In this document: in pieces, positions 3,116 to 61,385 of the stretch
Layout: each line of letters begins with the position of its first letter
Position numbering within the stretch: the stretch's first letter is position 1
Virus record (IMG/VR): IMGVR_UViG_2877826310_000002
Span: 19,922 to 83,921 of that record
From: a virus
Taxonomy: Duplodnaviria > Caudoviricetes
Length of the DNA stretch: 64,000 bases
Direction: 5' to 3' (one strand)
Notes under the pieces: model-generated
What the model was told of the DNA's origin: nothing
Database searches by the model: none
The model's input: only the letters and a program-made list of their open reading frames with translations
Program-made: the position numbers and the translations under genes

Positions 3116-3148
3116 CCCCTTGCAACTCAACCTTACGGAAACACCGAC

Positions 3149-3439: not shown

Positions 3440-3608
3440 CCGAAGACGGGCTGGGCCAGCTGCTGGCCCTGACCCAACGCTGGCTGCCTGGCGCTGAGCC
3501 CACGATTGAAAGCATGGGCACCGCCAAGTGGCTTGAAGACGAATACTGGAGACGCATGGAAATTGCCGTCGCCAACGGCATTTCCACTGCCTTTAACGGA
3601 TAACCCTG

Positions 3609-7982: not shown

Positions 7983-7990
7983 GAGCCCTC

Positions 7991-10333
7991 ATGGCTGCAA
8001 GTATCACCATCGCCGGCGAAAAACTGATCGCCCAGAAACAAGCGGCCAACCTGCCGCTGACCGTTGCCCGATTCGTGCTGGCCAACGTGCCAGGCCTCAA
8101 CGTTTCCGGCCCGGTCAACCGTGCCGGCGTCAAGCCGCCAGCGGCTCAGATCGTCTATACCGCAAGCGTCACCCAGCAGGGCTTCGTCAATCCCAACCAA
8201 GTGGTGTACAGCCTGTTGATGGGCACCGATATCGGCGACTTCGACTGGAACTGGATCGGCATGGAGACCAGCGACGACGTGCTGCTGTCGGTCGCCTACG
8301 TGCCGTTGCAACAGAAGCGCAAGAACGTCCTGCCTGACCAGATCGGCAACAACGTGACTCGCAACTTCCTGGTGGTGTTCGACGGTGCACAGCAGTTGAC
8401 TGGCATCAAGATCGACGCCAGTACCTGGCAGTACGATTACACGGCGCGCATGAAGGGCATCGACGAGCGCGAGCGCATCAGCAACCGGGACATGTTCGGG
8501 CGTGCCTGCTTTTTCGGCGCAGGCCTGCAGTTGAAGAAGGTGGGCGCTGTCTACCAGCTCAACCCCGGCGTGGCGTATGTCGAAGGCATTCGCCTGCAGC
8601 TCGATGCCGTGTTGCCCGTGACCGTGCCGGCAGTGCCGACCAAAGCCTGGCTGGATGTGGTGCTGCAGCGCGAGCTGAGCGACGTCGTGGCCTCGTTCAA
8701 AGTTGTGTTCGGCCAGGACGCAAAGATCGATTACACCGACAGCGCATCGGCCAGGCACTACCTGGTGCCGCTGGCTGACATCACCGGCACCAGCAGCCTG
8801 ACCGACCTGCGTCCGATCGAGGCGATCGACATCGAGCTGGTGAAGCACTTCGCGGCGCGGGTTGGTGACTATCCAGATCTGCGCGCCCGTGCCACGACCA
8901 AGGAAGACGTGGACCTGGGCAACCTGCCCAATGCGATCAGCGACGATCCAAACAGCAACAGCGGCGTGGTGCTGGCCACCACCAGAATGGTCAATGCCGT
9001 GCGCTCGGCCATCAGCCAGGTTATGGCGCTGATCGTTGACGGCTCCACCCCGGTTGGCAGGGCCGTGCGCCTGGTTACGCCGCGAGCCATTCGATTCAAC
9101 GGCGCGGCCAGTGGCATCGGGACCTATGACGGCGCAAGCGACACCAATATCACCCTGACCCTGGCCGATAGCGGCGTTGCGGCAGGTACGTACACGCGAG
9201 TCGCCGTCAATTTGAAAGGCCTGGTGACCAGTGGCGGCAATCCCACGACGCTGGCCGGATACGGCATCACCGACGCATACAGCAAGGATGACGCGAACAG
9301 CAGCTTTGTGAAGCAAGGCGGTGGGCCTGGGATGCTGAGCAACAGAATCAACATCGGCTGGACCGGAGACAGGCTCAAAGTGAGTGTGGACGGCACAGAC
9401 GGGGGCAGGATCTGGACGGACACCAGCTTCAATCCCAATGACAAGGCCAATAAAGCCACCTCGCTGGCCGGCTACGGCATCACCGATGCCCACACCATCA
9501 CTCAGGTAAACGACCTGGTGGGCAGGCGGGTACTGGCTGACTCGATCATCCACGCCGGTTTTGCCAGCAACAACACCGACTACCCGTACTTCCGTCGGAG
9601 TTCTGATGACAAGGTGTATTACCTGCAGCCGCAGATCGGCTACACGCCGTTGCAGCAGGGCGGCGGTGCCGGCCAGAAGACTAACAAGGTGTATATCGGT
9701 TGGTCGGACGTTGGACTGAAATTGACGGTCGACGCAACAGACATGGGCCGTATCTGGACGGAGCAGTCGTTCAATCCCAACGAAAAGGCCAATAAGTCCA
9801 ACTCGATCGCCGGCTATGGCATCACTGACTGTTACACCGTTACCCAAGTCAATGCGTTGGTCTCCGCACGTGTCGCTGCTGACTCGATCACCGCAGCGGG
9901 TTTTGCCAGTGACAACCCGGAGTTTCCTTACTTTCGCCGTTCCTCAAACGGGGCCGTTCACTACCTGCAGAACCGCCTCGGCTTTGTGCCGGTGCAGCAG
10001 GGCGGTGGAGCCAACCAGGCCACCAACCAGTTGCGTCTGGGCTGGGCAACCAACGGCGCAGGCGTCCGGGCGCAAGTGGACGCCACTGACCTCGGCCTGC
10101 TGTGGGGCGAGCAGAACTTCTACCGCCCAGACAACAACAACTTTCTGGCGGTGTCCGTCACCGCGACCGAAGTACGACTGCCAGCAGGCGGCACCTGGTG
10201 TTACTCGCTGATGCATTACTACTCAGGTGGTGCGGGTGTGGTCGGTCGAAGTGGCCAGGCAGCCGGCGGCACCGTTATTTCATTCAGTGGCGGTAGCACC
10301 ATTTACGGCTTCGCCTGGAGGTACGCAGCATGA
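7991..10333 (+). CDS. Tail fibre protein with repeated modules
   Basis: N-terminal collar domain (GDFDWNWIG); repeated LAGYGITD / QGGG / IGW modules. Confidence 0.88.
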   Translation: MAASITIAGEKLIAQKQAANLPLTVARFVLANVPGLNVSGPVNRAGVKPPAAQIVYTASVTQQGFVNPNQVVYSLLMGTDIGDFDWNWIGMETSDDVLLSVAYVPLQQKRKNVLPDQIGNNVTRNFLVVFDGAQQLTGIKIDASTWQYDYTARMKGIDERERISNRDMFGRACFFGAGLQLKKVGAVYQLNPGVAYVEGIRLQLDAVLPVTVPAVPTKAWLDVVLQRELSDVVASFKVVFGQDAKIDYTDSASARHYLVPLADITGTSSLTDLRPIEAIDIELVKHFAARVGDYPDLRARATTKEDVDLGNLPNAISDDPNSNSGVVLATTRMVNAVRSAISQVMALIVDGSTPVGRAVRLVTPRAIRFNGAASGIGTYDGASDTNITLTLADSGVAAGTYTRVAVNLKGLVTSGGNPTTLAGYGITDAYSKDDANSSFVKQGGGPGMLSNRINIGWTGDRLKVSVDGTDGGRIWTDTSFNPNDKANKATSLAGYGITDAHTITQVNDLVGRRVLADSIIHAGFASNNTDYPYFRRSSDDKVYYLQPQIGYTPLQQGGGAGQKTNKVYIGWSDVGLKLTVDATDMGRIWTEQSFNPNEKANKSNSIAGYGITDCYTVTQVNALVSARVAADSITAAGFASDNPEFPYFRRSSNGAVHYLQNRLGFVPVQQGGGANQATNQLRLGWATNGAGVRAQVDATDLGLLWGEQNFYRPDNNNFLAVSVTATEVRLPAGGTWCYSLMHYYSGGAGVVGRSGQAAGGTVISFSGGSTIYGFAWRYAA

Positions 10334-10830
10334 CAGACGCACTTCTCGACACTCCCGAAGAGGTTTTGCCGCCCACGTTTGCGGCTCCCGAAGAACCGGT
10401 GACCTTGAGCGTAACGTTCTCCGATGTGGCCCTTAAAAACGACGGCTCGTTCGTGATAACCGTTGCTGGCAACCGTTGTCACGTTACCCAGGACTACAAT
10501 CCGCCGCTTTACCAAGCCGTTGTCGAGTACCTGGACGCCGGTGGCCACGCTACCGAGTACGCCGAGGACGTTGTTGTCCAGGCCGATCCTGCGTTGCTGG
10601 CCAAGCTCTGGGTAGAACTGCGTTTGAAGGTGTCGGATAACCTGGTATCGCAGTACCGCGATGCTCGCGATCTGGGCGGTGAACTGCCGATCACACCCGA
10701 ACAGTTCACCCAGTTGCTGACCTGGCGGCAAGCAGTGCGCGAATGGCCGCAGGTGCCTGGCTACCCGAAGCAGACAACACAGCCTGTTACCCCTGACTGG
10801 ATTGAAGCGGTCGTGCTCGATGGCGAATGA
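10330..10830 (+). CDS. Tail fibre assembly chaperone
   Basis: WRQAVREWPQ...P..P C-terminus, directly after the fibre. Confidence 0.75.
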   Translation: MTDALLDTPEEVLPPTFAAPEEPVTLSVTFSDVALKNDGSFVITVAGNRCHVTQDYNPPLYQAVVEYLDAGGHATEYAEDVVVQADPALLAKLWVELRLKVSDNLVSQYRDARDLGGELPITPEQFTQLLTWRQAVREWPQVPGYPKQTTQPVTPDWIEAVVLDGE

Positions 10831-11752
10831 ATGGGCACCGATCAAACTGCAGTGGCCGGTGCAGGCCACGCAGTGGATGGATCAGATGGCAGGTGCACGC
10901 GACCTGATCCAGAGCGAAATGGCAATCACCGGTCAGCGCGTCTCGATGCTGGCCGATATCGCCAAGACCAGTCCTGGTCTGATTGCGGGTGCCGCGAAGT
11001 CGGCCATTAGCGCTGGGCGCGATGCATTGGTCGCGCAGTTTGAAAACGTCCCGTCGTGCATCGTCGTGACGCCCTTTCAGCACGGTGTAGGGCAGGGCAG
11101 CGGTGGTCACCAGCGCTTTTTGTCTGCGCCGAACCTGCTGCAGCTACTAGCCGACAAGCTCACTGATACCACTGACGCTGTGCGGCCCCAAGGTCAGCAA
11201 AGCGCCCTGGTACTGATATTCCTCGCCACGCGCCTGGACCAGCTCGCCGCGACGTTGGGTCGGTTCAACGTGGTGTTGCCTATGCCTGACCTGGTGCGCG
11301 CCGAGCGCCGTGCCGAACACCTGGCCAAGCTGGAGGTGGAAAAGTGGGTGATGCCGATCGCCGGGCAAATGCCGCTCTGGAGCCAGTTGCCGCTGCAGCG
11401 CTGCCCGATCACCAAGCTGGCCAGCCAGTCCATGGCCGGCCAACTGGCGGTACTTGAGGGCTATGCCGCCGACAGTTCGCCGATGGCGGACCTGGCCGAT
11501 CTGCAGGCCCGAAAGAAGGCACAGGTACAAGAACGCGAGCAGCAGCTGGCCGACCTGAAAGCCCAGTTCATCAACAGTGCCGACGATGTATCGATCCAGT
11601 CCAGGATGCTGGGACCGGGTGACGTGGGCCAGCTCCGCCGCGAGCTCCTCGAGGGCGAAGCACCAGGTCATGAGTGGCCGCTCTGTGCCGGCGCACTGTT
11701 GGTGGGCTCTGCAGAGAGCCTGAGCTTTGTTCAGGAACTGGTGGGCCTATGA
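10820..11752 (+). CDS. Phage tail/baseplate protein
   Basis: Translationally coupled ORF in the tail operon. Confidence 0.6.
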   Translation: MANEWAPIKLQWPVQATQWMDQMAGARDLIQSEMAITGQRVSMLADIAKTSPGLIAGAAKSAISAGRDALVAQFENVPSCIVVTPFQHGVGQGSGGHQRFLSAPNLLQLLADKLTDTTDAVRPQGQQSALVLIFLATRLDQLAATLGRFNVVLPMPDLVRAERRAEHLAKLEVEKWVMPIAGQMPLWSQLPLQRCPITKLASQSMAGQLAVLEGYAADSSPMADLADLQARKKAQVQEREQQLADLKAQFINSADDVSIQSRMLGPGDVGQLRRELLEGEAPGHEWPLCAGALLVGSAESLSFVQELVGL

Positions 11753-12285
11753 CGCTGCTACTCAACGGCGAGCAGATCATCGGCCACCGCATGAAGCTGA
11801 CGGCCAACCTCAAGATCGAGGCCGACGAGCTGGGCGGTCAGACATCGGGCACCGACAAATCCCACAAGGGTTTCAAACCCAAGACGCTTACGGTGGCCCT
11901 GACGATCCCTTACAAGTCGCTCGAGAACCTGCGCACGATCATGCGCTTGGCCGAGGCGACTGCAGGCGGTGGCCAGCTGCAGACCTACCGGATCGTCAAT
12001 GACACGGCCAAGGCCTTTGGCATCCGGCAGGTGACGTTCTCCGACGGGGTCAGCGCCCGTGAAGACGACACACTGGCCCAATGGATCGTCCAGTTCACCC
12101 TGAGCGAGAAGCTATCCAACCCGGAGAAGGTCGAGAACCGACGCGCCGGCAACGGCGTGACATCCCAGTCAGCGCCTGGCGATGGTGTGGCGGGTAGTGG
12201 GTCCGGATCGGGCGCAGCCGAAGAACTGACCGGCTTTGAGGCCGTGCTCAAGAAGGTGGACACCTACCTGGGCGGCACGCCATGA
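11749..12285 (+). CDS. Baseplate complex protein
   Basis: Coupled ORF, ATG 11749. Confidence 0.6.
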   Translation: MTLLLNGEQIIGHRMKLTANLKIEADELGGQTSGTDKSHKGFKPKTLTVALTIPYKSLENLRTIMRLAEATAGGGQLQTYRIVNDTAKAFGIRQVTFSDGVSAREDDTLAQWIVQFTLSEKLSNPEKVENRRAGNGVTSQSAPGDGVAGSGSGSGAAEELTGFEAVLKKVDTYLGGTP

Positions 12286-12992
12286 GCATGAAACTGCACA
12301 AAGTGCTGACGATCGGCGGCGTGGCTACGCCGCTTATCAATGACGATGTTCGACTGGATCTCAAGAGTCCGGGCCGCGCCACGTTCACGATCAAGGCCGG
12401 TGCCACAGTCAAAGGTTTGGTCACGTTCGATATCGGCTACAACGAAGCGGTCCTGCAGCGTCACTTCATTGGCTATGTCGAGCGCTGCACTGCCACCAAC
12501 GGCATCGAGCAGGTGGTGCTGTGCCGCGAGTTAGCCGCGGTGCTGGCCAACCCTTTGCCCATGAACCTGCGTCATGTGGATCTGCGCGCGGTGCTGACCG
12601 ATATCGGCAGCAAGACCGGATTGCGCTTTCGGGTTCCGGATCAGGCCTACACACGCGTCAAGACACCGTTTTTCTACAACCTGGCCGCTGGGTACCAGGC
12701 TCTGGACAGCATGGCGCGGGTGTTTGGCATCAAGGACTTTATCTGGCAGCAACAGGGCGACGGCGAGATCTACGTCGGTGCCTGGGCTGACAGTTTCTTC
12801 GGCGCTCGGTCGCCGTTGCAGTTGCCGGTTAACCTTTTCGACGGTTACCAGGGCAGCCAGAGCGCAATGATCGCGGCCTTGCCGGGCTTGCGACCAGGCG
12901 TATCAATCAACCAGGGCGAGCGGATCACGAACGTGACGCTGGCCGGCACACAGATGGCCATCAAATGGACGACGCAATCAAGCGCAGCGTAG
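12282..12992 (+). CDS. Baseplate hub-like protein
   Basis: Coupled 236-aa ORF, HP1-like gene order. Confidence 0.55.
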   Translation: MSMKLHKVLTIGGVATPLINDDVRLDLKSPGRATFTIKAGATVKGLVTFDIGYNEAVLQRHFIGYVERCTATNGIEQVVLCRELAAVLANPLPMNLRHVDLRAVLTDIGSKTGLRFRVPDQAYTRVKTPFFYNLAAGYQALDSMARVFGIKDFIWQQQGDGEIYVGAWADSFFGARSPLQLPVNLFDGYQGSQSAMIAALPGLRPGVSINQGERITNVTLAGTQMAIKWTTQSSAA

Positions 12993-13936
12993 AACGACAA
13001 TTCCCTGAACTCACTGGCGGCTATCACTTGCCGCGCTTCGCCAAGGTCGTGGCCGTGGCGGATGCGCCGGCCAGCGCTGGACTGTGTGACGACTTCCGCC
13101 CGCGCTTCTCGGTCGACCTGCAGGTGATGGGGCCAGATGGTGAGATCGACACGACGTTGCCGGTGCTGGCCGGCGTGCCGCTGCCCATGCCGGTGGGCGG
13201 CGATGAGATGGGATTCTTTGCCTTTCCGGAGGAGGGCACCAGCGTGGTGGTGTGCTTCGCTTATGGCCTGCCGCACAAGCCCTACATCCAGACCATCCTG
13301 CCGCACGGACTGACACTGCCAAAGGTGCCCAAGGGTGACCAGGTGTGGCAGCACAGTGATGCGGTGCAACAGCGTGTCGACGCCGACGGCAACTGGCTGC
13401 GTAAGACTGACGGCAAGATCCAGGACCAGGCGATCGAGCGCGAAGTCGACGCCATGACGAACACTGAAAGCTTCCAGAGCCACACCAGGACGGTGGATGA
13501 CCATTCGACTGAGTCAGTGGGTGGCGTGAAGAAGATCGAGGCTCTGGGAGCGCTCAAGCTGCTGTCAGGCGGATCCGCGAGCCTGGCGGCAGTGGACGAC
13601 CTGCACCAGGCCACCGGGCGTGACCTGAACCTGGTGGTCGGCCAGAAGCACAACGCGACGGTGGGTGGCGACATGGTGGAGAGGATTCAGGGTCTGCGTG
13701 AGAGCATCACCAGTAAGAGTCAGCGTTTGCAGGCTCCTAAAAACTGGGTTGGGTCGGGCGGTGTTAACATCTTTCAGGTGGTGTGCGACTTGCTGGATCT
13801 GGTCCAGGAAATGAATACCCAGCTTGCCGCGCACCAGCATGGGCCATCCCCGATACCGAGTAACGCAGCTGCGTTTACGGCGGACGCAGCCAAGGCAGCG
13901 TTACTGTGCGCCAAACTCAAGTCAGTGACGCTTTGA
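12965..13936 (+). CDS. Baseplate spike (gpV/gp5-like)
   Basis: PEEGTxVxVxF OB-fold motif, beta-helix repeats, HxH tip (AHQHG). Confidence 0.7.
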   Translation: MDDAIKRSVERQFPELTGGYHLPRFAKVVAVADAPASAGLCDDFRPRFSVDLQVMGPDGEIDTTLPVLAGVPLPMPVGGDEMGFFAFPEEGTSVVVCFAYGLPHKPYIQTILPHGLTLPKVPKGDQVWQHSDAVQQRVDADGNWLRKTDGKIQDQAIEREVDAMTNTESFQSHTRTVDDHSTESVGGVKKIEALGALKLLSGGSASLAAVDDLHQATGRDLNLVVGQKHNATVGGDMVERIQGLRESITSKSQRLQAPKNWVGSGGVNIFQVVCDLLDLVQEMNTQLAAHQHGPSPIPSNAAAFTADAAKAALLCAKLKSVTL

Positions 13937-13985
13937 TGTCTAAACCCGGCGCCAGCAAAATTTTGGGGAATTATCTTATAAGCTT

Positions 13986-14014
13986 GGAACCGATCCGCTC
14001 CCTATGACCACTCA
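13986..14014 (+). promoter_or_regulatory. hrp box (HrpL-dependent promoter)
   Basis: GGAACC-N16-CCACTCA just upstream of avrPto. Confidence 0.95.
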
Positions 14015-26489: not shown

Positions 26490-27067
26490 GCGATTCCAAA
26501 CCAATCATCACAACGGACGGCATTGTTCTCGACGTCGACCATTACAAGAAGTACGCCGATGGGCCATTGATATTCAAGTGCTTTGAGGTCATAGACGAAG
26601 CCATTGATGCCGTGGAGGAAGGCGCAAAAATCCAGCTTCACGACGACACCCATTTTGGCCTAATCGCTGCGTACTGGGCGTTGACGGCACTTTTCGAAAG
26701 GCATACCGGAGCCAACGCCAAAGAGGTGTCGGACAAGCGTATCGATAATCTTCGTGCGCAGTTGCTTGGCGGTGCGCAGCAATCTATGTCGATGCCCGCA
26801 AGCAAGCCTCTGGAAAAGCCTGTGATCCTCAGCAAGGAATATCTCGACGAGTTGGACGACTACACGCTGGCCAGCCTTGCGTTGACTGATTGCGATAACA
26901 GCCAGGTGAGCTTGCTCGCGGCCGACCACAGTCTGTCAGCCGGTGACTTCCGACGCACGATCGTGCCGATGGCAAACGCCCAGACGGCCTTACGCCTACT
27001 GTGCCGCCGCTTGCTGAACGATGGAGGTAGCGCCTCTCACCTGCCTGCCGGGGAGACGCTTCAATGA
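26486..27067 (+). CDS. Hypothetical phage protein
   Basis: Coupled 193-aa ORF. Confidence 0.6.
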   Translation: MSDSKPIITTDGIVLDVDHYKKYADGPLIFKCFEVIDEAIDAVEEGAKIQLHDDTHFGLIAAYWALTALFERHTGANAKEVSDKRIDNLRAQLLGGAQQSMSMPASKPLEKPVILSKEYLDELDDYTLASLALTDCDNSQVSLLAADHSLSAGDFRRTIVPMANAQTALRLLCRRLLNDGGSASHLPAGETLQ

Positions 27068-27891
27068 GCGTTCAAGCAATGTCCTGGGCGCTGTCACAGC
27101 AGATCGTCACGGAGTCTCACGGTCGCCATGTCCTGCTGTGCCTGGCCAACTATGCGGATCAGGATGGACGGGCTGCATTCCCTTCAATATCAAGCCTGTC
27201 GCGCGATACTGGCCTGTCTCCGCGCACTGTGCAGTATCGCATTCGCGACCTCGAAAATTTGGGTGTGATCAAACGCGGAAATCAGGCCATTCCAGCGGCC
27301 TATATCAACCAGAGAGACCGCATTCCTGTGTGCTACGACATCGACCTTAAACGGGGTGCACAGCATGCACCCGGTGCACACGAAGACGTAACGGGGTGCA
27401 CGCCAGAACAGAACGGGGTGCACGCCACGACAGAACGGGGTGCACAGCATGCACCCAATCCACCCATTAACCACCCATTAACCATCCATAACCATAAAGA
27501 GGGCGATAACGCCTCTGATAAGGATGAGCAGAAAGGAAAATCTATTCGCAAAAATCCAAAGTTCGACCCTGCATCGGTGAAGCCTGCTAACGCTTCGGAA
27601 AAGGCATGGGCTGACTTCTGTGATATGCGGAAAACCAAACGGGCACCACTGACGCTTCGTGCATGCGAAATGATCGCCGCCAAGCTGGCAAATCATGCTG
27701 ACCCAGACGCGGTGCTGGATAAGTCCACCGCCAGCAGTTGGAGCGACGTGTACCCCGAGTCTGTTCTGCCAGGCACCAGCGCCAAGAGCGGGAAGCCGTC
27801 CCGTCACACCCAGCTCGATCAGGTGGACCACACCGACGGCCTGGAGCTGGACGGCAATGGCAACTACCGGATTTCTGGGGGTAGCCAATGA
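27064..27891 (+). CDS. Replication initiator (O-like, N-terminal HTH)
   Basis: VLLCLANYAD..FPSISSLSRDTGLSPRTVQ; internal iterons. Confidence 0.85.
   Translation: MSVQAMSWALSQQIVTESHGRHVLLCLANYADQDGRAAFPSISSLSRDTGLSPRTVQYRIRDLENLGVIKRGNQAIPAAYINQRDRIPVCYDIDLKRGAQHAPGAHEDVTGCTPEQNGVHATTERGAQHAPNPPINHPLTIHNHKEGDNASDKDEQKGKSIRKNPKFDPASVKPANASEKAWADFCDMRKTKRAPLTLRACEMIAAKLANHADPDAVLDKSTASSWSDVYPESVLPGTSAKSGKPSRHTQLDQVDHTDGLELDGNGNYRISGGSQ
27350..27495 (+). repeat. Replication origin iterons
   Basis: AACGGGGTGCAC at 27350, 27390, 27412, 27434, then CCACCCATTAA-like repeats. Confidence 0.8.
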
Positions 27892-28676
27892 CCACTCAAC
27901 CACGCTATGCCGTCGAAAACCGCTCGGGCGTTTGCTCGATCCACGGTCAGTACACCAACGCGCTCGTCGAGCAGTTCGGCGCAGGCCCGATCTGGTACGG
28001 CTGCCCGCGCTGCGAGTTTGATAGCCGCCACTCGCCTGACATCAGCGTCCGCGCTGGGGGCACGCTTCTACACACTGACCGCCTGTTGAACGCTCGCCTG
28101 CTCGATACATGCATCCCGGCCCGCTTCCAGCAGGCCACCCTTGAAAATTGGGTTGCTGGGAGTGACGACGCCAAGACGAAGGCATGGAACGTCGCCACGA
28201 GCTTCGTGGAGGCCTTCGCCGAAAACTATCAGGCCGGCCGCTGCGTGATGCTGCTGGGGCAGGTCGGCACCGGCAAGACCCACCTTGCCGCTGCCGTTTT
28301 GCAACAGGTCATCAGGTACTTCGGCAATCAGGGCGTGACTGGCCTGTACACAACAGCCAGCGCAATCATCAGATCGGTCAAAGGCACGTTCGGCAATCCT
28401 GCCAAAACCGAGTCGCAGGTCTACGCCGATCTGATCGCCCCGCACCTACTGGTGATCGATGAGGTGGGCCTACAGAACGGAACTGACTTCGAGCGCGCAA
28501 CATTGTTCGAGGTGATCAACGGCCGATACGAGCAGCTCAAGCCGACAATCATCGTCAGCAACCTGAGCATCACCGACCTGAAGCTGAGCATGGGTGATCG
28601 CACTGTGGACCGCCTGCGCGATCGTGGCGGGCTGGTCTGCCTGTTCCGCTGGCCGTCGGCGCGAGGTGCCGCATGA
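27888..28676 (+). CDS. DnaC/IstB-like helicase loader ATPase
   Basis: GQVGTGKTHLA Walker A; LLVIDEVG Walker B. Confidence 0.9.
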   Translation: MTTQPRYAVENRSGVCSIHGQYTNALVEQFGAGPIWYGCPRCEFDSRHSPDISVRAGGTLLHTDRLLNARLLDTCIPARFQQATLENWVAGSDDAKTKAWNVATSFVEAFAENYQAGRCVMLLGQVGTGKTHLAAAVLQQVIRYFGNQGVTGLYTTASAIIRSVKGTFGNPAKTESQVYADLIAPHLLVIDEVGLQNGTDFERATLFEVINGRYEQLKPTIIVSNLSITDLKLSMGDRTVDRLRDRGGLVCLFRWPSARGAA

Positions 28677-30004
28677 GCCGCGAACTTTACAGCCTTGAGG
28701 CTGAGCATGGCCTTCTGGGCGCACTGCTGCTGGACGCCTCCCTGTTCGACGCCATCACCGCCCGGATCACGACGGCCGACTTTGCCTACGACGATAACGC
28801 TGCGATGTATCAGGCGATCATCAACACGCACGCCACCGGCCAGCCTGTAGATGTGGTGACGGTGGGTATCGAATACCCGGACCTGCCAAGTGGCGCGCGA
28901 ACCCTGGCCTACGCATCAGAGATCGCCAAGAACATCCCCAGCACCGCGAACTGGGCCGGATATCAACGCATCGTGCTGGAGCGTTCCGCGCTGCGCCGAG
29001 TGGTTGAGGCGGCGGAGGTGATCAAGGATTCGGCCAGTGAAAGCTTGCCGGTCGCTGACATCATCGCACTGGCCCAGCAGGCAACGGCGGATCTGCGCGA
29101 CCTGGGCGCACTAGACCGGAAGGATTACTACAAGTACAGCGAGGTGCTGACTCCCGTAATCGATGGCATAGACAGTCGATTCAACGGAGCAAAACAGCTC
29201 GGCCACTCAACCGGCTTAAAGGATCTGGACGAGCTGATCCGAGGCCTTCGCAACAAAAACATGATCGTTATCGCCGGTCTGCCGGGCTCAGGCAAAACAA
29301 CGCTGGGCGTTCAGATCGCTCAGAAGATTGCATGCGTCGACAACGGTGTCGGTCTCATCGTCTCGATGGAAATGACCAAGGAAGAGCTGGTCACGCGCGG
29401 CATTGCATCCGTGGGCGGCGTGAGCCTGACGCGTCTTGATGAGGGGCACACGCTTCAGGACGAAGACTGGCCGAAGATCACCAGTGCCGTGAACGTGCTG
29501 CACAAGTCCAAGCTGTTCGTCTGCGATGAGGAAGGCATGACCGCCGCCCGCATTCGTTCGACAGCCAGGCAGGTGCAGCGCAAGGAAGGGCTGAGCATTG
29601 TGGTGGTGGACTACATCGGCCTGATCGCCGCCGAGGGCGCCGGGCAAAACCGAACGCTCGAGCTGGGCAAGATATCCACTGCGCTCAAGAACATGGCCAA
29701 AGAGCTGGACGTGCCTGTCGTTGTGCTCGCGCAGCTCAACCGTGGATCAACCAACCGCACCGACAAGAAGCCACGCCCGAGCGACCTGCGGGACTCAGGC
29801 CAGATCGAGGCCGACGCTGACGTCGTGATCCTCGTTCACCGGGATGCAGACAGCGAGGAAGGCCAGAACGGAGTGGTTGAATTGATCGTTGGCAAGTGCC
29901 GACACGCCAAAACAGGGTCGTGCATGGTCCAGCAGCAGGGGCAGTTCGTCCGCTTTGTGGACTTTGCCGGGAATCCATATGAGGGTGTAGACAAAATCAT
30001 GTAG
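28673..30004 (+). CDS. dnaB: DnaB-like helicase; last 26 aa displaced by an IS (native end 31242)
   Basis: GLPGSGKT, QLNR, SDLRDSGQIE motifs; frame resumes after the IS at 31162. Confidence 0.9.
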   Translation: MSRELYSLEAEHGLLGALLLDASLFDAITARITTADFAYDDNAAMYQAIINTHATGQPVDVVTVGIEYPDLPSGARTLAYASEIAKNIPSTANWAGYQRIVLERSALRRVVEAAEVIKDSASESLPVADIIALAQQATADLRDLGALDRKDYYKYSEVLTPVIDGIDSRFNGAKQLGHSTGLKDLDELIRGLRNKNMIVIAGLPGSGKTTLGVQIAQKIACVDNGVGLIVSMEMTKEELVTRGIASVGGVSLTRLDEGHTLQDEDWPKITSAVNVLHKSKLFVCDEEGMTAARIRSTARQVQRKEGLSIVVVDYIGLIAAEGAGQNRTLELGKISTALKNMAKELDVPVVVLAQLNRGSTNRTDKKPRPSDLRDSGQIEADADVVILVHRDADSEEGQNGVVELIVGKCRHAKTGSCMVQQQGQFVRFVDFAGNPYEGVDKIM

Positions 30005-31158
30005 TGAGTCGGCGCGCGAGTATTCGAGCCTCGGCCAACCAAACCCATGCCTCGCTTACCGCAAAAAGGCGATCATGATGCATGATCAGTCGCCGAGCTC
30101 TCTCATTCCAGGCATGAGTTCGCTCCACTACCCATCGCTTGGGCATGACCACAAATCCAGTCTGAACAGGCTCCACGGAAAATAGATCGCCTTGTTCAGA
30201 GTGCCATTGCCCTGTTCTTCTGTTATTCGGGCCACGGATCACTTGAACATCGATAGCGTGCAGTTGATGGGTGCGCTGTGCCCATTTTCCTGCGTACGCA
30301 CTATCAACAAAAAGCGTGCTCAGTGACGGATATTTTTCCTTCGAGTACGCCACCGCATCATCCGCCGCGTCACGATCCTGCACGCTTGCAGCACTGATAC
30401 TGACAGCCAGCAGCAGGCCCAATGTATCGACAATCAGACTTCGTTTACGCCCCTTCACTTTTTTGCCTGCGTCGTAGCCGCTGTCACCGCCTTGAGGAGA
30501 ACTGCGGGTCGACTGTGAATCCAGGATCGCTGCTGACGGGCTGTCAGCGCGTTCTTCCCGCTCACGCCATTGAGCTCGCAAGCGATCATGCATTTGCTCG
30601 AACTTGCCTTGAGCGCTCCACCGGCGGAACGTTTTGTAGACATTGTCCCAATGAGGAAAATCGCGGGGTAGCATTCGCCATGAGCACCCCGTGCGTACGA
30701 CATAGCAACAGGCTTCCAGCAACGTGCGCCGAGAGTGAAGCGGTGGCACTCCTCGTCCGCCCTGGCTTTCAAACAGGTCGGCGACCAGTGCCCACTCGGT
30801 ATCTGTCAAGCAACTCGGATATAGCTGCTCCGGCAGTTGGCGGCGGTGGGTTTCATTGTAGCCATAGGCTTTATTAGGTTCAGGTGACTGAAAACTTCCC
30901 TTGGCCCGCTGCTTTACACGCGTAATCCCTGCCATTTTCAACGCTTTTGCAAAGGTGTCGGGATGCGCAGTGATACCGGTTTCGGCGAAGAATACGAGCG
31001 CCAATTCGGCCTGGCTGGAATAGGGCTGTGCATGAGCGAGTTTCACCAGCACGGGATAGTGCTCGGCGGCAATCGAGCGAGGACGTCCGGTTTTAGGCAT
31101 GGCTTGAGGGCTATTCAGACAAGGGAGTGAAAGTTTAATTTATTTTGTCTACACCCTC
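29981..31158 (-). mobile_element. IS5-family insertion sequence (1178 bp)
   Basis: 17-bp IR GAGGGTGTAGACAAAAT; 3-bp TSD TAT. Confidence 0.92.
29997..31100 (-). CDS. IS5-family transposase
   Basis: YVVRTGCSWRMLP, GYDAGKKVKGRKR, RWVVERTHAW. Confidence 0.92.
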   Translation of the reverse strand: MPKTGRPRSIAAEHYPVLVKLAHAQPYSSQAELALVFFAETGITAHPDTFAKALKMAGITRVKQRAKGSFQSPEPNKAYGYNETHRRQLPEQLYPSCLTDTEWALVADLFESQGGRGVPPLHSRRTLLEACCYVVRTGCSWRMLPRDFPHWDNVYKTFRRWSAQGKFEQMHDRLRAQWREREERADSPSAAILDSQSTRSSPQGGDSGYDAGKKVKGRKRSLIVDTLGLLLAVSISAASVQDRDAADDAVAYSKEKYPSLSTLFVDSAYAGKWAQRTHQLHAIDVQVIRGPNNRRTGQWHSEQGDLFSVEPVQTGFVVMPKRWVVERTHAWNERARRLIMHHDRLFAVSEAWVWLAEARILARRLTT

Positions 31159-31792: not shown

Positions 31793-32073
31793 ACAATGTG
31801 AATGCGGCACTGCCGCGCAAGAGCCTGACAGCCGTCGAGTGCAAGTTTCTCAAGATCGGCAACCGTCAGCTGCTCGAATCCAACAACGGCCGAATGGCAT
31901 CGGCAGCCCTGATGGATATCGTCTGCGACTGGCATGCATCCAGATCAAGCGCCGGTTTCGAGGCTTTCGCCAGAACCTGGATTGCCGAGGGCAATGCCAA
32001 AAGCTCCATAGCCAACAAACTGCTGAAAGAACTCTTCGGCATGAATGAACCAGATCCGAGGAAGGCAGCATGA
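31789..32073 (+). CDS. Hypothetical phage protein
   Basis: Coupled ORF before Q. Confidence 0.65.
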   Translation: MNNVNAALPRKSLTAVECKFLKIGNRQLLESNNGRMASAALMDIVCDWHASRSSAGFEAFARTWIAEGNAKSSIANKLLKELFGMNEPDPRKAA

Positions 32074-32456
32074 AAAAGCGTACATACGTCGATAAGCCCC
32101 TGGGCGACACCGAATACCTGCTGGAAAACTGGGGCTCGTGGCGGATGTCTGGCATGGGCGTTCCGCGCTACGTATCCCCGCTGGCTGCCTTGAAGAACCA
32201 GTGCTTCCCGGAGCCGAGCGCAACGACCTATATGATCACTGACGACACGGCAATGCTTGTGGACGCCACTATCGCCAGGCTGATTACGCGCAACCAGCAG
32301 ATGGGGGATTTCATCTGGTGGTACTTCGGCTCCAAGTGGACGATGGTCCGGATTGCCGAGACTCACAAGATGTCGGAGCGATCCGCGCGCGAAATCATCC
32401 GGCAGGGAGTGGCTTGGATCGATGGTGCTTTAGGAGATATTTCCGAGGTTGCGTAA
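32070..32456 (+). CDS. Antitermination protein Q family
   Basis: YLLENWGSW..ITDDTAMLVD..GVAWIDG; precedes late genes. Confidence 0.85.
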   Translation: MKKRTYVDKPLGDTEYLLENWGSWRMSGMGVPRYVSPLAALKNQCFPEPSATTYMITDDTAMLVDATIARLITRNQQMGDFIWWYFGSKWTMVRIAETHKMSERSAREIIRQGVAWIDGALGDISEVA

Positions 32457-32535
32457 AAAGTTCTTTCAGGCCTGATAAACACCTGTTTTTATAGCACGGT
32501 GTTCAGCTGTTTCAGCGCGACACGATGACTATCAG

Positions 32536-32561
32536 ACCCCAGCCAAGTGCTGGGGTTTTTC
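32536..32561 (+). terminator. tR'-like intrinsic terminator
   Basis: ACCCCAGC/GCTGGGGT hairpin followed by Ts. Confidence 0.75.
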
Positions 32562-32567
32562 GTTTCT

Positions 32568-32653
32568 GGAAGGTGGCGCTCAGTGGTGGGCAAACCGGTT
32601 TGAACCCGGTGCTATCGGTAACGGTAAGAGTTCGACTCTTTCACCTTCCGCCA
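32568..32653 (+). tRNA. tRNA-Ser(TGA), non-canonical 8/4 fold
   Basis: GGAAGGTG/CACCTTCC 8-bp acceptor, 4-bp T stem, TTCGACT loop, long variable arm, G discriminator, CCA. Confidence 0.82.
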
Positions 32654-32658
32654 ATTAA

Positions 32659-32742
32659 GCCGACTGAGAGTGCGCTGGGACGCACGCTGGACTGTAAATC
32701 CGGTACTTAGGTTATGTGGTTCGATTCCATCAGGCGGCACCA
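32659..32742 (+). tRNA. tRNA-Tyr(GTA)-like, 8/4 or 9/3 fold
   Basis: GCCGACTG(A)/(T)CAGGCGGC acceptor with one mismatch, CTGGA-CTGTAAA-TCCGG arm, A discriminator, CCA. Confidence 0.72.
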
Positions 32743-32746
32743 ATTT

Positions 32747-32833
32747 GGAATTTAACAAGCCTGCGGAGGCTTGACGGTTTGCTAAACCGATCGATCGGCA
32801 ACGGTTGTGGTTCGACTCCACTGCATTCCGCCA
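32747..32833 (+). tRNA. tRNA-Ser(GCT)-like, 8/4 fold with 7-bp D stem
   Basis: GGAATTTA/TGCATTCC acceptor, CAAGCCT-GCGG-AGGCTTG D arm, GTGG/CCAC T stem, G discriminator, CCA. Confidence 0.75.
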
Positions 32834-32880: not shown

Positions 32881-33210
32881 TCATAAAGGCCTTTTACCGC
32901 TACTCACGTCGGCTAAGTCGTGAATCAGAAACTTCAAGAATTCTAGGCCGAGTAAAGCGTAATAAACGGCCTCCAAGATTTCCCATCGGTTGATCGGGTC
33001 GCCGCTCAGGCCGAAGTCCAAAATCTTAGATAGGCAAAAGGCCATGAGCAGAACGCCGATTCCGAATCTCGCGATCATCCTAATCAACACCCTGATCAAC
33101 TTCCCAGTTTTTTGGCTGATGGTTTCGATCAGGGCTGACTTATTGATCTGGTGCGCCGTGACACCCGCGATAATTGCCACCAACATTGTTATCCATAGAT
33201 CCTTTGGCAT
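32881..33210 (-). CDS. Small membrane protein (moron)
   Basis: 109 aa, ~3 TM segments, antisense to late operon, AT-richer. Confidence 0.6.
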   Translation of the reverse strand: MPKDLWITMLVAIIAGVTAHQINKSALIETISQKTGKLIRVLIRMIARFGIGVLLMAFCLSKILDFGLSGDPINRWEILEAVYYALLGLEFLKFLIHDLADVSSGKRPL

Positions 33211-33324: not shown

Positions 33325-33696
33325 ATGGACCCAACCGATCTCGGCCCAGGCACAGCTACCTGGCTGGGCGGTACGGGCACAATCCTGTTGGGTGGCTTCC
33401 TGTGGTTGAGGAAATTCCTCTCCAGGGATGCGACCGACCGCGCCATGGACAACGCCGATATCGGCACGGTCCGCCGACTGAACGAGCTGCTCGACTCTGA
33501 ACGCATTGCACGGAAAGAGGCCGAGGCCCGCGCCGATCAGTTCGCCAAAGAACGCAACGAACTCGCCGCTGCTGTCGGCAGGATGGAAGGGCGAATTGAC
33601 GCCCTCACCAGCCAGGTCGCGCAGCTCACCGACAAAGTGACATCGCAGAGCTCGGAGATCTCCCGCCTGCGCACTCAACTCGGAGGAAACAGCTGA
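33325..33696 (+). CDS. Putative holin-like protein
   Basis: N-terminal TM plus coiled coil; first late gene. Confidence 0.55.
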   Translation: MDPTDLGPGTATWLGGTGTILLGGFLWLRKFLSRDATDRAMDNADIGTVRRLNELLDSERIARKEAEARADQFAKERNELAAAVGRMEGRIDALTSQVAQLTDKVTSQSSEISRLRTQLGGNS

Positions 33697-35939: not shown

Positions 35940-36425
35940 ATGGGAGGTACCGCCACGGTCGCCGGCCGTGGTCGCAAACCCAAGCCGACCGCCAAGAAAG
36001 CACTAGCCGGTAATCCCGGCAAACGCGCGCTGAATAAGGCCGAGCCCGCTTTTTCGAAGATCACAAATGTTGATCCGCCCGAATGGCTCAGCAACCGCGC
36101 TTCGCAGATGTGGAAGATGATTGTTCCTGAGCTTCTTCGCGAAAACGTGGTTGCGATAACTGATTTACACAACGTCGAAGCGTTCTGCGTTGCATACGAC
36201 AACTGGCGAATGGCGCAGGAGTCAGTCCAGGCCCACGGCATCGTAGTTACTGGTGCCACCGGCGGCCCGATGAAAAACCCGGCGCTCACCGCTGCGAACG
36301 AAACGATGCGTCAAATGGTGACGTTCGGTTCGATGCTGGGCCTGGACCCTGCCAGCAGGACACGCCTTATCGGCGGCAACAAGGAAAAAGAAACCAACGA
36401 ATTCGCCCAACTACTGAGATCGTAA
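35940..36425 (+). CDS. Terminase small subunit (P27 family)
   Basis: GRKPKPT..GNPGKR..KNPAL..LGLDPASR. Confidence 0.9.
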   Translation: MGGTATVAGRGRKPKPTAKKALAGNPGKRALNKAEPAFSKITNVDPPEWLSNRASQMWKMIVPELLRENVVAITDLHNVEAFCVAYDNWRMAQESVQAHGIVVTGATGGPMKNPALTAANETMRQMVTFGSMLGLDPASRTRLIGGNKEKETNEFAQLLRS

Positions 36426-38153
36426 ATGGCCAAGTCCGCCCACCCCAACGTCGATAAGGCGATGGTTTGGGGACGGTCTCTGTTGCGAGGGAAGGTCCCG
36501 GCCTGCCGCTACATTCATCAGGCCGTGCAGCGTCACTTCGACGATCTGGCAGCCAGTCGCAAGCGCGGGTTCAGATTCAAGTTCGATCCGGCGAAGGCTG
36601 AGAAAAAACTCAAGCTGATCCAGCTATTGCCGCATACCAAGGGCGAATGGGCGTTCAAGCGCCAGTTGATCACGCTTGAGGGATGGCAGCTCTTCGGCCT
36701 GGCTGTGACCTTCGGCTGGGTCAAGAAGAAGGGCGGGCACCGTAGGTTCCGCGAAAGCTACTGGGAGGTGCCGCGCAAGAACGGCAAGTCGGTTGTCGCC
36801 GGTGGTGTAGGCATTGGCATGTTCGTGGCCGACGATGAGTTCGGCGCCGAAGTCTATTCAGGCGCGACAACCGAGAAGCAGGCTTGGGAGGTCTTCAGGC
36901 CTGCAAAGCTGATGGTGACGAAATCGCCGATGCTGATCCAGGCTGCTGGCATTGAGGTTAATGCCTCAAACATGAACATCCCCTCAGACTTCAGCCGGTT
37001 TGAACCGCTGATCGGCAACCCTGGCGACGGTGCGTCACCCAGTTGTGCCATCGTCGATGAATATCACGAACACCCGACCTCGGCTCAGTACGACACGATG
37101 CTTACCGGCATGGGGGCTCGGCGTCAGCCGCTTATGTTCATTATCACCACAGCCGGCGCTGACATCGAAGGGCCTTGTTACGACAAGCGCCGCCAGGTCA
37201 TCGAGATGCTGGCTGGCACGGTTCCAGACGACGAGCTGTTCGGCTGGATCTGGACGCTTGATGAGGGGGACGACTGGACAGACCCCAAGATGCTGGCCAA
37301 GGCCAACCCGAACCACGGGGTATCCGTGTTTCAGGAGTATCTGGAGAGCCAGCAGGCTCGAGCGATTCGGTCTGCGCGTTTCACCAACACGTTTAAGACC
37401 AAGCATCTAAACCTTTGGGTGAGCGCCAAGTCCGGCTTTTTCAACATGGAGGACTGGAAGTCCTGCGAGGACACCTCGCTTACGCTCGATCAATTCGAGG
37501 GCCAGGAGTGGATAGCTGGTTTCGACCTTGCGCGAAAGCTGGACATGAACTCAAGGGCTCGCCTGTTTTGGCGGGTGATCGATGGAAAGACTCACTACTA
37601 CAGCGTGGCTCCCAAGTTTTGGGTGCCATACGACACCGCTTATGACAGCGACAACAAGCGGATGTCCGAGCGCTTCCAAGCCTGGCTGAACTCGAAACAC
37701 CTTGAGGTCACCGATGGTGCCGAGATCGATTACCGCGAAATTCTCGAAGACACCAAAGAGGCGAACAAGCACGCACCGCTGCGCGAGTCGCCGATTGACC
37801 CACACGGCGCTACTGGGTTGAGCCATGACCTCGACGACGAGGGTTTCAATCCGATCACCACCACCCAGAACTACACCAACATGTCCGACCCCATGAAGGA
37901 ACTGGAAGCGGCTATCACGGCTGGACGGTTCCACCATGACGGCAACCCGATCATGACCTGGTGTATTGCCAACGTGATTGGCAAGAACATGCCCGGTAAC
38001 GACGACGTAGTACGGCCCATTAAGCAGGGCGATGACAACAAGATCGACGGCGCAGTGGCGCTCATCATGGCCATAGGTCGGGTGCTGATCTTGGCAAACG
38101 ACGGCAGCGGAAATATCAGCGAGTTTTTCTCGCAACCAATCATCGTTGGATAA
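36426..38153 (+). CDS. Terminase large subunit
   Basis: [24 protein letters not shown]. Confidence 0.95.

Positions 38154-61303: not shown

Positions 61304-61385
<82 letters not shown>

Follow-up and report, generated by a model that had tools for sequence, protein, structure and literature searches.

The window analyzed here, a 64,000-nucleotide stretch of viral DNA, contains three adjacent tRNA genes, tRNA-Ser(UGA), tRNA-Tyr(GUA) and tRNA-Ser(GCU), referred to below as tRNA1, tRNA2 and tRNA3. Based on comparisons with sequences from other phages, these are probably (a probability of roughly 0.7) genuine, late-expressed elongator tRNA genes that are carried as cargo in a prophage late operon and that retain the usual 12-bp acceptor and T branch but divide it into an 8-bp acceptor and a 4-bp T stem (8/4) rather than 7/5. 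Phage relatives support this division for tRNA1 and tRNA2, and more weakly for tRNA3. To all appearances, three tRNA lineages carried by phages have inherited the 8/4 fold, and it did not arise as a local accident. The initial annotation of this DNA had described three CCA-ended tRNAs (Ser-TGA, Tyr-GTA and Ser-GCT) lying 4-5 nt apart, and it was right about their coordinates, order, anticodons and CCA ends.

Organization of the locus

The carrier of the tRNA trio is a lambdoid prophage of the Pseudomonas syringae group. The features of the region are collected in Table 1. Spacers of 5 nt (32654-32658) and 4 nt (32743-32746) separate tRNA1 from tRNA2 and tRNA2 from tRNA3, respectively.

Table 1. 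Features of the tRNA locus and its surroundings, in window coordinates, with the tRNAs folded as 8/4
Feature	Positions	Strand	Description
Q-like late antiterminator gene	32070..32456	+	128 aa; Pfam PF06530 Phage_antitermQ, 45.8 bits (cut-off 26)
Intergenic block between Q and terminator	32457..32533	+	Putative late-promoter and Q-utilisation segment
Terminator-like GC-rich hairpin (32534-32558) with T-rich tail	32534..32567	+	Directly 5' of tRNA1
tRNA1, tRNA-Ser(UGA)	32568..32653	+	86 nt; G73; CCA encoded; ARAGORN default; acceptor 8 bp, T stem 4 bp, D stem 4 bp with 6-nt loop, variable arm 5 bp
tRNA2, tRNA-Tyr(GUA)	32659..32742	+	84 nt; A73; CCA encoded; ARAGORN at relaxed threshold only; acceptor 8 bp with A5.G mismatch, T stem 4 bp (9/3 also possible), D stem 5 bp with loop CUGGGA, variable arm short
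tRNA3, tRNA-Ser(GCU)	32747..32833	+	87 nt; G73; CCA encoded; ARAGORN at relaxed threshold only; acceptor 8 bp with private U6.C mismatch and U7-G wobble, T stem 4 bp, tRNA-Sec-like D arm of 6-7 bp with tetraloop GCGG, variable arm 5 bp, A.A mismatch in anticodon stem
ORF, function unassigned	32881..33210	-	109 aa; variable slot 3' of the tRNAs; phrog_26906, E 3.6e-72
First gene of presumed lysis/late region	33325..33696	+	phrog_2658 'hol-like chemotaxis', E 8.7e-49
Terminase small subunit	35940-36425		PF05119; downstream of the tRNAs
Terminase large subunit	36426-38153		phrog_9; downstream of the tRNAs

The initial annotation placed the cluster behind the Q late promoter. The Q gene is indeed there, with a match to PHROG 79 (phrog_79, 'anti-termination protein Q-like', E 2.7e-31) in addition to the Pfam family PF06530. 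The terminator-like hairpin has a stem of 10 pairs (6 of them GC) and is followed by a run of T. The promoter itself was not borne out as a sigma-70 consensus: a consensus scan of the block between Q and tRNA1 found 0 sites, and the late promoter is therefore assigned from position. Relatives without tRNAs (L001, L036 and L005) are homologous to the window throughout the 32457..32533 block and as far as 32568. Three other loci (L117, L119 and L120) have a hairpin and T run at the same place, with different letters in the stem as judged by eye.

Compared to relatives that lack it, the cassette has borders at 32568 and at about 32863. One genome (G078) has the cassette at 98% identity. Its content varies: of 112 loci that have a relative of Q, 13 contain tRNA1 (one partial), 3 contain tRNA2 and 3 contain a full tRNA3. 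The trio lies in a moron slot of the lambdoid late operon, 3' of Q and the late terminator and 5' of the genes for lysis and packaging, with contents that differ from one relative to another. It is most likely cargo in the prophage late operon, with Q-dependent transcription predicted. An attachment-site remnant was considered and rejected, because the genes are complete and within the late operon, and because the cassette border falls at the 5' end of tRNA1. The ORF on the other strand just beyond the tRNAs has no match in Pfam or PADLOC.

Lambdoid Stx phages, 933W among them, also have tRNA genes that follow Q and precede the cargo and lysis genes. This is the same slot, 3' of Q and the late terminator and 5' of lysis, and it is likewise presumed to be Q-dependent; however, the Stx-phage tRNAs are canonical and serve rare Ile and Arg codons, whereas the trio is class II and folds as 8/4.

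In two sets of RNA-seq contigs and one untyped run, only the flanks of this region are shared (the left one as far as 32508, the right one from 32851 on), and the sequence diverges over the cassette. A small-RNA run with the same organism label gave 0 reads on the region. These samples speak neither for nor against tRNA expression.

Relatives and alignments

A blastn search with tRNA3 against 50,697 phage records gave no match at E <= 0.01, and relatives were recovered by pattern scans only. Because the search patterns fixed the T arm in the Tyr search and the anticodon arm in both Ser searches, invariance in the Tyr T arm and in the Ser anticodon arms is there by construction. MAFFT put the length difference at the 5' end and misaligned the acceptor strands, both for 19 Tyr sequences (A1) and for 14 Ser-GCU sequences (A4). 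The Tyr counts given below use alignment A2, which is without L153, L158 and L163, and the Ser-GCU pairs were counted by script from both ends and not from A4. Taken separately, L153 and L163 form 8 of 8 acceptor pairs including G8-C, while L158 has G8.G together with U49-G and looks 7/5. Sequences left out were L288 (cut at a contig end), L067 (similar over the 5' 57 nt only) and L324, a non-tRNA sequence that happens to match the 18-nt pattern. The 20 Ser-GCU sequences include L326, despite an aberrant T loop.

Evidence for the 8/4 division

Evidence for an 8-bp acceptor comes from the family of tRNA1. Pair 8 is formed in all 23 Ser-UGA sequences (GC in 19, UA in 3, AU in 1) with 4 double changes, while the rival fifth T-stem pair of a 7/5 fold is formed in only 1 of 23. 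Position 59 instead pairs with the variable arm in 23/23 sequences, with 3 double changes. The Tyr family (n=16) gives a similar picture, with pair 8 formed in every member (GC in 15, AU in 1) and the 7/5 alternative in none. In the Ser-GCU family (20 unique sequences), A8-U is present in 17/20 and U.U occupies the alternative pair in 17/20, and pair 8 never covaries; for that reason the tRNA3 family is consistent with 8/4 but does not prove it. The proposal of 8/4 in place of 7/5 for all three genes, as originally made, holds up for tRNA1 and tRNA2 and is compatible with the data for tRNA3, and the covariation among homologues on which it was to be judged is found at pair 8 in the Ser-UGA and Tyr families and is absent there in the Ser-GCU family.

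One might suppose that these are ordinary 7/5 tRNAs with a mismatch at the last T-stem pair and that 8/4 is an artefact of how they are drawn. ARAGORN's own drawing of tRNA1 is indeed 7/5, leaving G8 unpaired and placing an A.C mismatch in the T stem, and the missing covariation in the Ser-GCU family would fit. The family counts and the pairing of position 59 argue the other way, as does the base at position 8, which is G or A in the trio but mostly U or C in 87 control 7/5 phage Tyr tRNAs (U 53, C 22, A 9, G 3). The tRNA-Sec covariance model also outscores the general tRNA model for all three genes (see below). The artefact is largely refuted for tRNA1 and tRNA2, and as an account of the trio it is hardly tenable.

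The fold is uncommon among unselected phage tRNAs of the Tyr and Ser-GCU specificities. A control set of 115 unique phage Tyr tRNAs contained 87 with 7/5 and 0 that are strictly 8/4. Of the Ser-GCU tRNAs from phages that share their anticodon arm with tRNA3 (112 unique sequences), 96 are 7/5 and 3 are 8/4. The host's own tRNA-Tyr, tRNA-Ser(UGA) and tRNA-Ser(GCU) are all canonical 7/5.

A 9/3 division, also raised in the initial annotation, is disfavoured for tRNA1, where pair 9 is formed in 18/23 sequences and the competing fourth T-stem pair in 23/23 with 9 double changes. It is similarly disfavoured for tRNA3, where A9.C is unpaired in 16/20. For tRNA2 both candidate pairs are invariant in the Tyr family, and the gene fits either 8/4 or 9/3.

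The remaining stems are also supported by comparison. In the Tyr and Ser-UGA family alignments, the paired counts for the whole structure exceed those of all 500 shuffles, and 93-98% of cells are paired, compared to 31-60% in slid controls. Double changes are present in the D, anticodon and variable stems. The D arm of tRNA3 has the 7-bp stem and tetraloop that had been noticed in the window, with a seventh pair that is lineage-specific; relatives have stems of 5-6 bp and loops of 4-5 nt.

Are the genes intact?

Several features of the trio could indicate decay. The U6.C mismatch of tRNA3 is absent from all 19 other unique relatives, each of which is paired at position 6, and its location next to the U7-G wobble may weaken the tRNA3 of this window. 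There are mismatches as well in tRNA2 (A.G) and in the anticodon stem of tRNA3 (A.A). Single-sequence folding scores are weak for tRNA2 and tRNA3, that of tRNA2 being no better than shuffles (z -0.27), and all three genes score under the curated thresholds of the tRNA models. In addition, Mukai et al. (PMC5389517) report allo-tRNA groups that are inactive in translation. On this basis the genes, or maybe tRNA3 alone, might be decaying or non-translational relics, either hitch-hiking remnants or marks for RNase P or RNase E in the late leader.

This explanation appears improbable. Compensatory changes are found in every stem and among distant phages, and all three genes keep the standard anatomy of a tRNA, with T loops of the form UUCGAYU, the D-loop GG, a 7-nt anticodon loop with U33, and an encoded CCA. 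The A5.G mismatch of tRNA2 is kept in 13/16 members of the Tyr family beside pairs 3 and 4 that covary, which points to tolerance or selection and not to decay. Finally, members of the same families are the only tRNAs of their kind in the lytic-phage sets examined. The 8/4 gene is the sole Tyr tRNA listed by ARAGORN in the large tRNA sets of the lytic phage PE09 and of L113, and the sole UGA-anticodon Ser tRNA that it lists in the lytic Schitoviridae L114 and L115. These sole copies argue for use in translation.

Detection by standard scanners

The suspicion that standard scanners may miss such genes was well founded. ARAGORN at default settings found 1/3 (tRNA1), and with -ps80 it found 3/3, at exactly the coordinates of Table 1. 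Rfam at gathering thresholds reported 0/3, while a tRNA-Thr of the same window scored 74 bits. None of the three reaches the curated threshold of the general model for canonical 7/5 tRNAs (RF00005). In a permissive Rfam run, the tRNA-Sec model (RF01852; gathering threshold 47) scored above RF00005 and was the best model for each of them, with 27.6 bits for tRNA1, 34.9 for tRNA2 and 28.8 for tRNA3. Other sub-threshold Rfam matches (AdoCbl-II, mir-7385, PsrR1 and others) were attributed to chance or to the terminator hairpin. Since default scanners miss genes of this type (2/3 here), phage tRNA inventories and codon-supply analyses are biased by under-calling.

The likeness to bacterial tRNA-Sec is limited. 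The 8-bp acceptor is shared, and over its last 30 nt at the 3' side tRNA3 has about 90% identity with tRNA-Sec genes of the host genus. However, tRNA-Sec has a 13-bp branch (8/5) and a UCA anticodon, whereas the trio has 12 bp, with 12 nt from the T loop to the discriminator, and the anticodons UGA, GUA and GCU. A tRNA-Sec or suppressor reading was rejected on the anticodons, the 12-bp branch and the scores below 47 bits.

Identity and probable use in translation

Both serine genes carry the discriminator (G73 or U73) and anticodon expected for serine (G73 with UGA in tRNA1, G73 with GCU in tRNA3). tRNA2 is not a tRNA-Ser, because it has A73 and GUA. The identity elements of bacterial tRNA-Tyr are the GUA anticodon, A73, G1-C72 and a class II variable arm; tRNA2 carries all four, and among its relatives A73 is invariant and G1-C72 is present in 15/16. 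The class II variable arm has 5-bp stems in tRNA1 and tRNA3 and is short in tRNA2, where 2 pairs were counted and 84% of cells are paired.

Based on these features, a simple pathway can be proposed. After induction, Q would carry RNA polymerase past the terminator at 32534-32558 and into the cassette, and the resulting tricistronic precursor would be cut by RNase P and then trimmed at the 3' ends down to the encoded CCA. Host SerRS would charge tRNA1 and tRNA3 by way of G73 and the long variable arm, and host TyrRS would charge tRNA2 by way of A73, G1-C72 and GUA. The charged tRNAs would then join late-gene translation, with tRNA1 supplying the decoding of UCU and UCA.

Codon usage, counted in prophage and host with crude ORF picking and a GC3 filter, fits a supply role for tRNA1, because the prophage uses UCU and UCA (7.0 and 7.3 per 1000) roughly twice as often as the host (2.8 and 3.9). 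For tRNA2 and tRNA3 codon supply is no explanation, because UAY (25.0 per 1000 in the prophage, 23.7 in the host) and AGY (27.3 and 29.7) are not enriched.

A possible role in counter-defence

The presence of tRNA2 and tRNA3 without matching codon enrichment would fit another use, along the lines of the nuclease- or toxin-resistant replacements or decoys proposed in the initial annotation, namely that the cassette provides divergent class II spare copies that sustain translation when host tRNA-Tyr or tRNA-Ser is destroyed or blocked. The spare copies might escape recognition through the variable arm or the 8/4 geometry, or they might simply add to the supply; either route is compatible with the elongator reading. 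All three tRNAs are class II, with a fold unlike that of the host's 7/5 versions, the variable region of tRNA2 differs from the host's in both sequence and length, and the cassette occupies a variable cargo slot. Phage tRNA-Tyr counters the PtuAB nucleases of Retron-Eco7 and Septu in T5-, T6- and SP15-type E. coli phages, according to two reports (PMC11555353 and PMC13096335), and both those tRNAs and tRNA2 differ from the host tRNA-Tyr in the variable arm; the passages concerned make no mention of an 8/4 fold. DUF1814 toxins (MenT3, kin of AbiEii) are reported to prefer tRNA-Ser.

Against this, tRNA2 and the host tRNA-Tyr have the same anticodon loop, so tRNA2 would remain open to any enzyme that recognizes its target there. 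PADLOC found no defence or toxin gene in 5 neighbouring ORFs, and tRNA1 has an ordinary explanation in the UCU/UCA enrichment. A counter-defence role is on balance unlikely. A more specific version, in which phages re-shaped class II Tyr and Ser tRNAs to 8/4 with altered variable arms and so evade shape-recognizing enzymes (PtuAB-type nucleases for tRNA-Tyr, AbiEii/MenT-type nucleotidyltransferases for tRNA-Ser), is somewhat less likely still. If the 8/4 fold does protect against tRNA-targeting defences, phages would have a way to evade immunity through tRNA structure, one that differs from mutating the anticodon loop; phage 8/4 would then be an immune-evasion trait, with the natural (8/4) tRNA-Tyr as its first tyrosine example.

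Relationship to known 8/4 tRNAs

Returning to elongator tRNAs, 8/4 folds as such were known, as the initial annotation said. Mukai et al. (Nucleic Acids Res 2017, PMC5389517) describe (8/4) tRNA-Ser in bacteriophages and proteobacteria, and E. coli can process and charge 8/4 and 9/3 tRNAs and use them on its ribosomes. The (8/4) tRNA-Ser resembles tRNA1 and tRNA3 in its 12-bp branch split 8/4, long variable arm, G73 and serine anticodons, and it too surfaced as a tRNA-Sec-like false positive. The main text of that paper deals with Ser and His tRNAs and not with Tyr, whereas tRNA2 is a tRNA-Tyr, and the phage clusters named there are alpha-proteobacterial, whereas the trio sits in a presumably Q-dependent late operon of a Pseudomonas prophage.

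The allo-tRNAs of Acidobacteria, Clostridia and Proteobacteria, which are 8/4 or 9/3 (PMC5389517 and PMC7609411), have the 8/4 branch in common with the trio. tRNA3 further resembles them in its long, tRNA-Sec-like D stem of 6-7 bp closed by the tetraloop GCGG and in its 6-position anticodon stem, which contains the A.A mismatch. Unlike tRNA3, tRNA1 (D stem 4 bp, loop 6 nt, anticodon stem 5 bp) and tRNA2 (D stem 5 bp, loop 6 nt, with a sixth anticodon pair formed in 7/16 relatives) have D and anticodon stems of ordinary length and no tRNA-Sec-like D arm. Most allo-tRNAs combine serine identity with a non-serine anticodon and are possible suppressors, whereas anticodon and identity agree throughout the trio (Ser, Tyr and Ser, in gene order).

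A natural (8/4) tRNA-Tyr seems not to have been described before. No description was found in the main texts of the openly readable literature searched, including passages of PMC5389517, PMC7609411 and PMC7590224, and tyrosine allo-tRNAs in the literature searched were synthetic versions only. With this locus, the 8/4 cloverleaf would extend beyond serine and histidine tRNAs and beyond unusual soil bacteria. If accepted by bacterial TyrRS, a natural 8/4 tRNA-Tyr would also be of interest for orthogonal-tRNA engineering. The fold recurs in tyrosine tRNAs of Pseudomonas prophages and of lytic phages such as Otagovirus of P. syringae pv. actinidiae; in GenBank the gene is recorded as an ordinary tRNA-Tyr in PE09 and is unannotated in PN09 and phiPsa315.

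Gene content around the tRNA cassette

The window belongs to an 83.9-kb virus record, and the gene content around the three tRNA genes is that of a lambdoid prophage. Relatives of its Q protein are encoded at 32 loci, almost all in Pseudomonas, with the P. syringae group closest. A 77-nt conserved block directly 3' of the Q stop codon leads into the terminator-like hairpin and then the tRNAs, which are separated by spacers of 5 nt (tRNA1/tRNA2) and 4 nt (tRNA2/tRNA3). The transposase gene, which has the DnaB-like helicase gene on one side and genes upstream of Q on the other, apparently marks an insertion sequence within the prophage. G+C is about 0.61-0.63 over window positions 1-14000 and 0.50-0.58 thereafter, and the step at about 14000 is probably the left prophage end. 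Past the tRNA-Thr(UGU) gene, at the window's extreme right, lie a C4 antisense RNA and the a1/b1 element that it targets (63458-63640); this is the immunity module of the P1/P7 type.

Features of the tRNA locus and of one related contig (window coordinates unless stated)
Feature	Position	Strand	Remarks
Replication initiator, DnaC-like loader, DnaB-like helicase	27064-30004		
367-aa IS4/IS5-family DDE transposase	29997-31100	-	PF13340 + PF01609
Q-like antiterminator	32070-32456		
GC-rich hairpin + T run	32534-32558		after 77-nt conserved block
tRNA1 (Ser)	32568-32653		anticodon UGA, CCA encoded
tRNA2 (Tyr)	32659-32742		anticodon GUA, CCA encoded
tRNA3 (Ser)	32747-32833		anticodon GCU, CCA encoded
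Holin-like gene	starts 33325		
Terminase subunits	35940-38153		
tRNA-Thr(UGU)	61310-61385	-	canonical
C4 antisense RNA and a1/b1 target element	63458-63509 and 63555-63640	+	Rfam above threshold
8/4 tRNA pair (Ser-GCU, Tyr) of L163	3108-3191 and 7251-7334	-	L163 coordinates

Of the 112 loci that encode a Q relative, 13 have the Ser-UGA tRNA (one partial only), 3 the Tyr tRNA and 3 the full Ser-GCU tRNA. The entire Tyr plus Ser-GCU stretch occurs in one of 401 sampled Pseudomonas genomes (98% identity), and a Tyr relative in three more. In close relatives without the tRNAs, homology extends to 32568, where tRNA1 begins, and divergence follows; in relatives with the cassette, divergence begins after about 32863. 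The cassette is therefore cargo, and the variable slot that it occupies directly follows the late terminator. In other relatives this slot holds Ser(UGA), Met(CAU) and Thr(UGU) genes at locus L075 (3074-3354), and Gly(UCC), Ser(UGA) and Tyr(GUA) genes at locus L118 (about 1500-1770).

Detection by standard tools

The initial annotation described three CCA-ended tRNAs 4-5 nt apart with anticodons UGA, GUA and GCU. This observation is confirmed. ARAGORN with a relaxed threshold recovers all three genes with exactly the coordinates and anticodons given in that annotation. The accompanying warning that standard scanners may miss them was justified: ARAGORN by default reports only tRNA1 of the three, and with its curated thresholds Rfam misses all three, while finding the tRNA-Thr of the same window at 74 bits. 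In a permissive Rfam run the selenocysteine-tRNA model is the top match for each (27.6, 34.9 and 28.8 bits for tRNA1, tRNA2 and tRNA3, versus a threshold of 47). Single-sequence folding gives cloverleaf-like structures with z-scores of -2.9, -0.3 and -1.7, respectively, so folding energy by itself is no proof. In GenBank, the tRNA2 homologue of phage PE09 is labelled simply tRNA-Tyr, and those of PN09 and phiPsa315 are unannotated.

Evidence for the 8/4 fold

In all three tRNAs the T loop and the discriminator are 12 nt apart, and the issue is whether these 12 nt are split 7+5, as in canonical tRNAs, or 8+4. An 8/4 fold has an eighth acceptor pair (pair 8); a 7/5 fold needs a fifth T-stem pair instead. 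Relatives were gathered from the loci with a related Q gene, from GenBank phages and by pattern scans of IMG/VR. The search patterns held fixed the T arm (Tyr set) and the anticodon arms (both Ser sets), so invariance there is partly by construction, including the A.A mismatch of the Ser-GCU anticodon stem. Total pair counts are higher than in any of 500 shuffles, and sliding the partners makes them collapse.

The Ser-UGA family comprises 23 distinct sequences from Pseudomonas prophages, Salmonella and Shigella Schitoviridae phages and metagenomic phages. Pair 8 forms in all 23 (G-C in 19, U-A in 3, A-U in 1), versus 1/23 for the pair demanded by 7/5, whose position pairs with the variable arm in every member. 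A 9/3 split is disfavoured for this family: pair 9 forms in 18/23, and the fourth T-stem pair in 23/23, with nine double changes. In the 16 distinct Tyr sequences pair 8 is again always formed (G-C in 15, A-U in phage PE09), and the 7/5 alternative never; the pairs discriminating 8/4 from 9/3 are both invariant, and the counts fit either. An extra linker base that MAFFT misaligned led to the exclusion of three further Tyr members, of which two have G8-C and one appears to be 7/5. Among 20 unique Ser-GCU sequences, A8-U is present in 17, and the bases of the 7/5 pair are a mismatched U.U in 17. Because this pair is invariant, it is compatible with 8/4 and does not amount to covariation. The acceptor and D stems of this family are wholly unlike in sequence among lineages with pairing kept, and support for a structured RNA is still good. 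Stem covariation among homologues, proposed as a check on the 8/4 reading of all three tRNAs, is thus seen at pair 8 of the Ser-UGA and Tyr families but not of Ser-GCU; overall, covariation largely confirms the 8/4 structure.

The same script was applied to two control sets. Of 112 unique phage Ser-GCU tRNAs with the same anticodon arm, 96 are 7/5 and three are 8/4; two of the three are variants from the window's lineage and the third is a distant relative. Phage Tyr tRNAs (115 unique) include 87 that are 7/5, none strictly 8/4 and 13 ambiguous. In 12 phage tRNA clusters scanned with relaxed ARAGORN, class II tRNAs divide into 8 as 8/4 and 17 as 7/5, and class I are mostly 7/5 (72 to 1); these counts cover anchored rows, many rows being unanchorable and hence unclassified. 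The tRNA-Tyr, Ser-UGA and Ser-GCU of a P. syringae genome are all canonical 7/5. Ser-GCU and Tyr tRNAs of the window's families, both 8/4, occur together on one 94-kb IMG/VR phage contig with a large tRNA array (L163), for which ARAGORN further reports Ser(UGA) and Ser(CGA) genes whose T loops are unusual.

As the initial annotation stated, such folds were already known. Mukai et al. 2017 (PMC5389517) described 8/4 and 9/3 tRNAs, among them an (8/4) tRNA-Ser of bacteriophages and proteobacteria and an (8/4) tRNA-His of bacteriophages, and showed that both forms function in E. coli translation. Therefore, tRNA1 and tRNA3 join a known kind as new members. No natural (8/4) tRNA-Tyr appears in the main texts searched, a provisional statement, and the tyrosine allo-tRNAs in this literature are engineered only. 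For serine the 8/4 kind is already known; for tyrosine it is apparently new.

Codon usage and possible function

Codons were counted in ORFs picked crudely by length and GC3 >= 0.6: 46 prophage ORFs (11,458 codons) and 90 host ORFs (32,648 codons) from 120 kb of P. syringae genome. UCU and UCA are enriched in the prophage (7.0 versus 2.8 and 7.3 versus 3.9 per 1000, respectively), and AGU, AGC, UAU and UAC show no meaningful difference between the two ORF sets. Codon supply therefore explains tRNA1, and not tRNA2 or tRNA3. GGA and ACA, also among the most enriched prophage codons, match the Gly(UCC) and Thr(UGU) genes that relatives carry. The most likely function of the cassette is ordinary support of late translation. 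The proposed resistance to anticodon nucleases or tRNA-modifying toxins has precedents in PtuAB of Septu and Retron-Eco7 for tRNA-Tyr (PMC11555353, PMC13096335) and, more loosely, in MenT3 of the AbiEii family for tRNA-Ser; a counter-defence role is possible.

Anatomy of the individual tRNAs

The D arm of tRNA1 is ordinary (4 bp, loop AGUGGU), and its anticodon stem measures 5 bp. In tRNA2 the D stem is 5 bp long with loop CUGGGA, the variable arm is short, and the anticodon stem is again 5 bp, extended by a sixth pair in no more than 7/16 of the family. Acceptor pairs 3 and 4 of tRNA2 covary within the family (C-G/U-A/A-U/G-C and G-C/A-U/U-A), and its A5.G mismatch (32663 with 32734), kept in 13/16 relatives, might serve as an identity element or as an anti-determinant.

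The tRNA-Sec-like D arm originally ascribed to tRNA3 is present; its seventh pair is confined to the window's lineage, relatives having 5-6 bp. The window's tRNA3 alone has a U at position 6 opposite C, a position paired in all 19 other unique relatives, including near-identical copies (L033-L035, L117); this copy may be weakened, or U6 may be an error. The 3'-terminal 29-32 nt of tRNA3 (32802-32833), which comprise its T arm, the 3' strand of the acceptor and GCCA, recur at 90-93% identity in 18 of the 401 sampled Pseudomonas genomes (L121-L138), and at 16 of these 18 sites ARAGORN calls a tRNA-Sec gene, a hint that tRNA-Sec and the Ser-GCU 8/4 lineage share ancestry. The 8/4 Ser-UGA tRNA of Salmonella phage vB_SenP_UTK0002 (L115) is directly followed by a tRNA-like element that lacks annotation and spans about 105 nt (about 1596-1700). 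Inspected by eye, this element looks 7/5, with UCA in the anticodon position, a tetraloop on a 6-bp D stem and a variable region that is very long.
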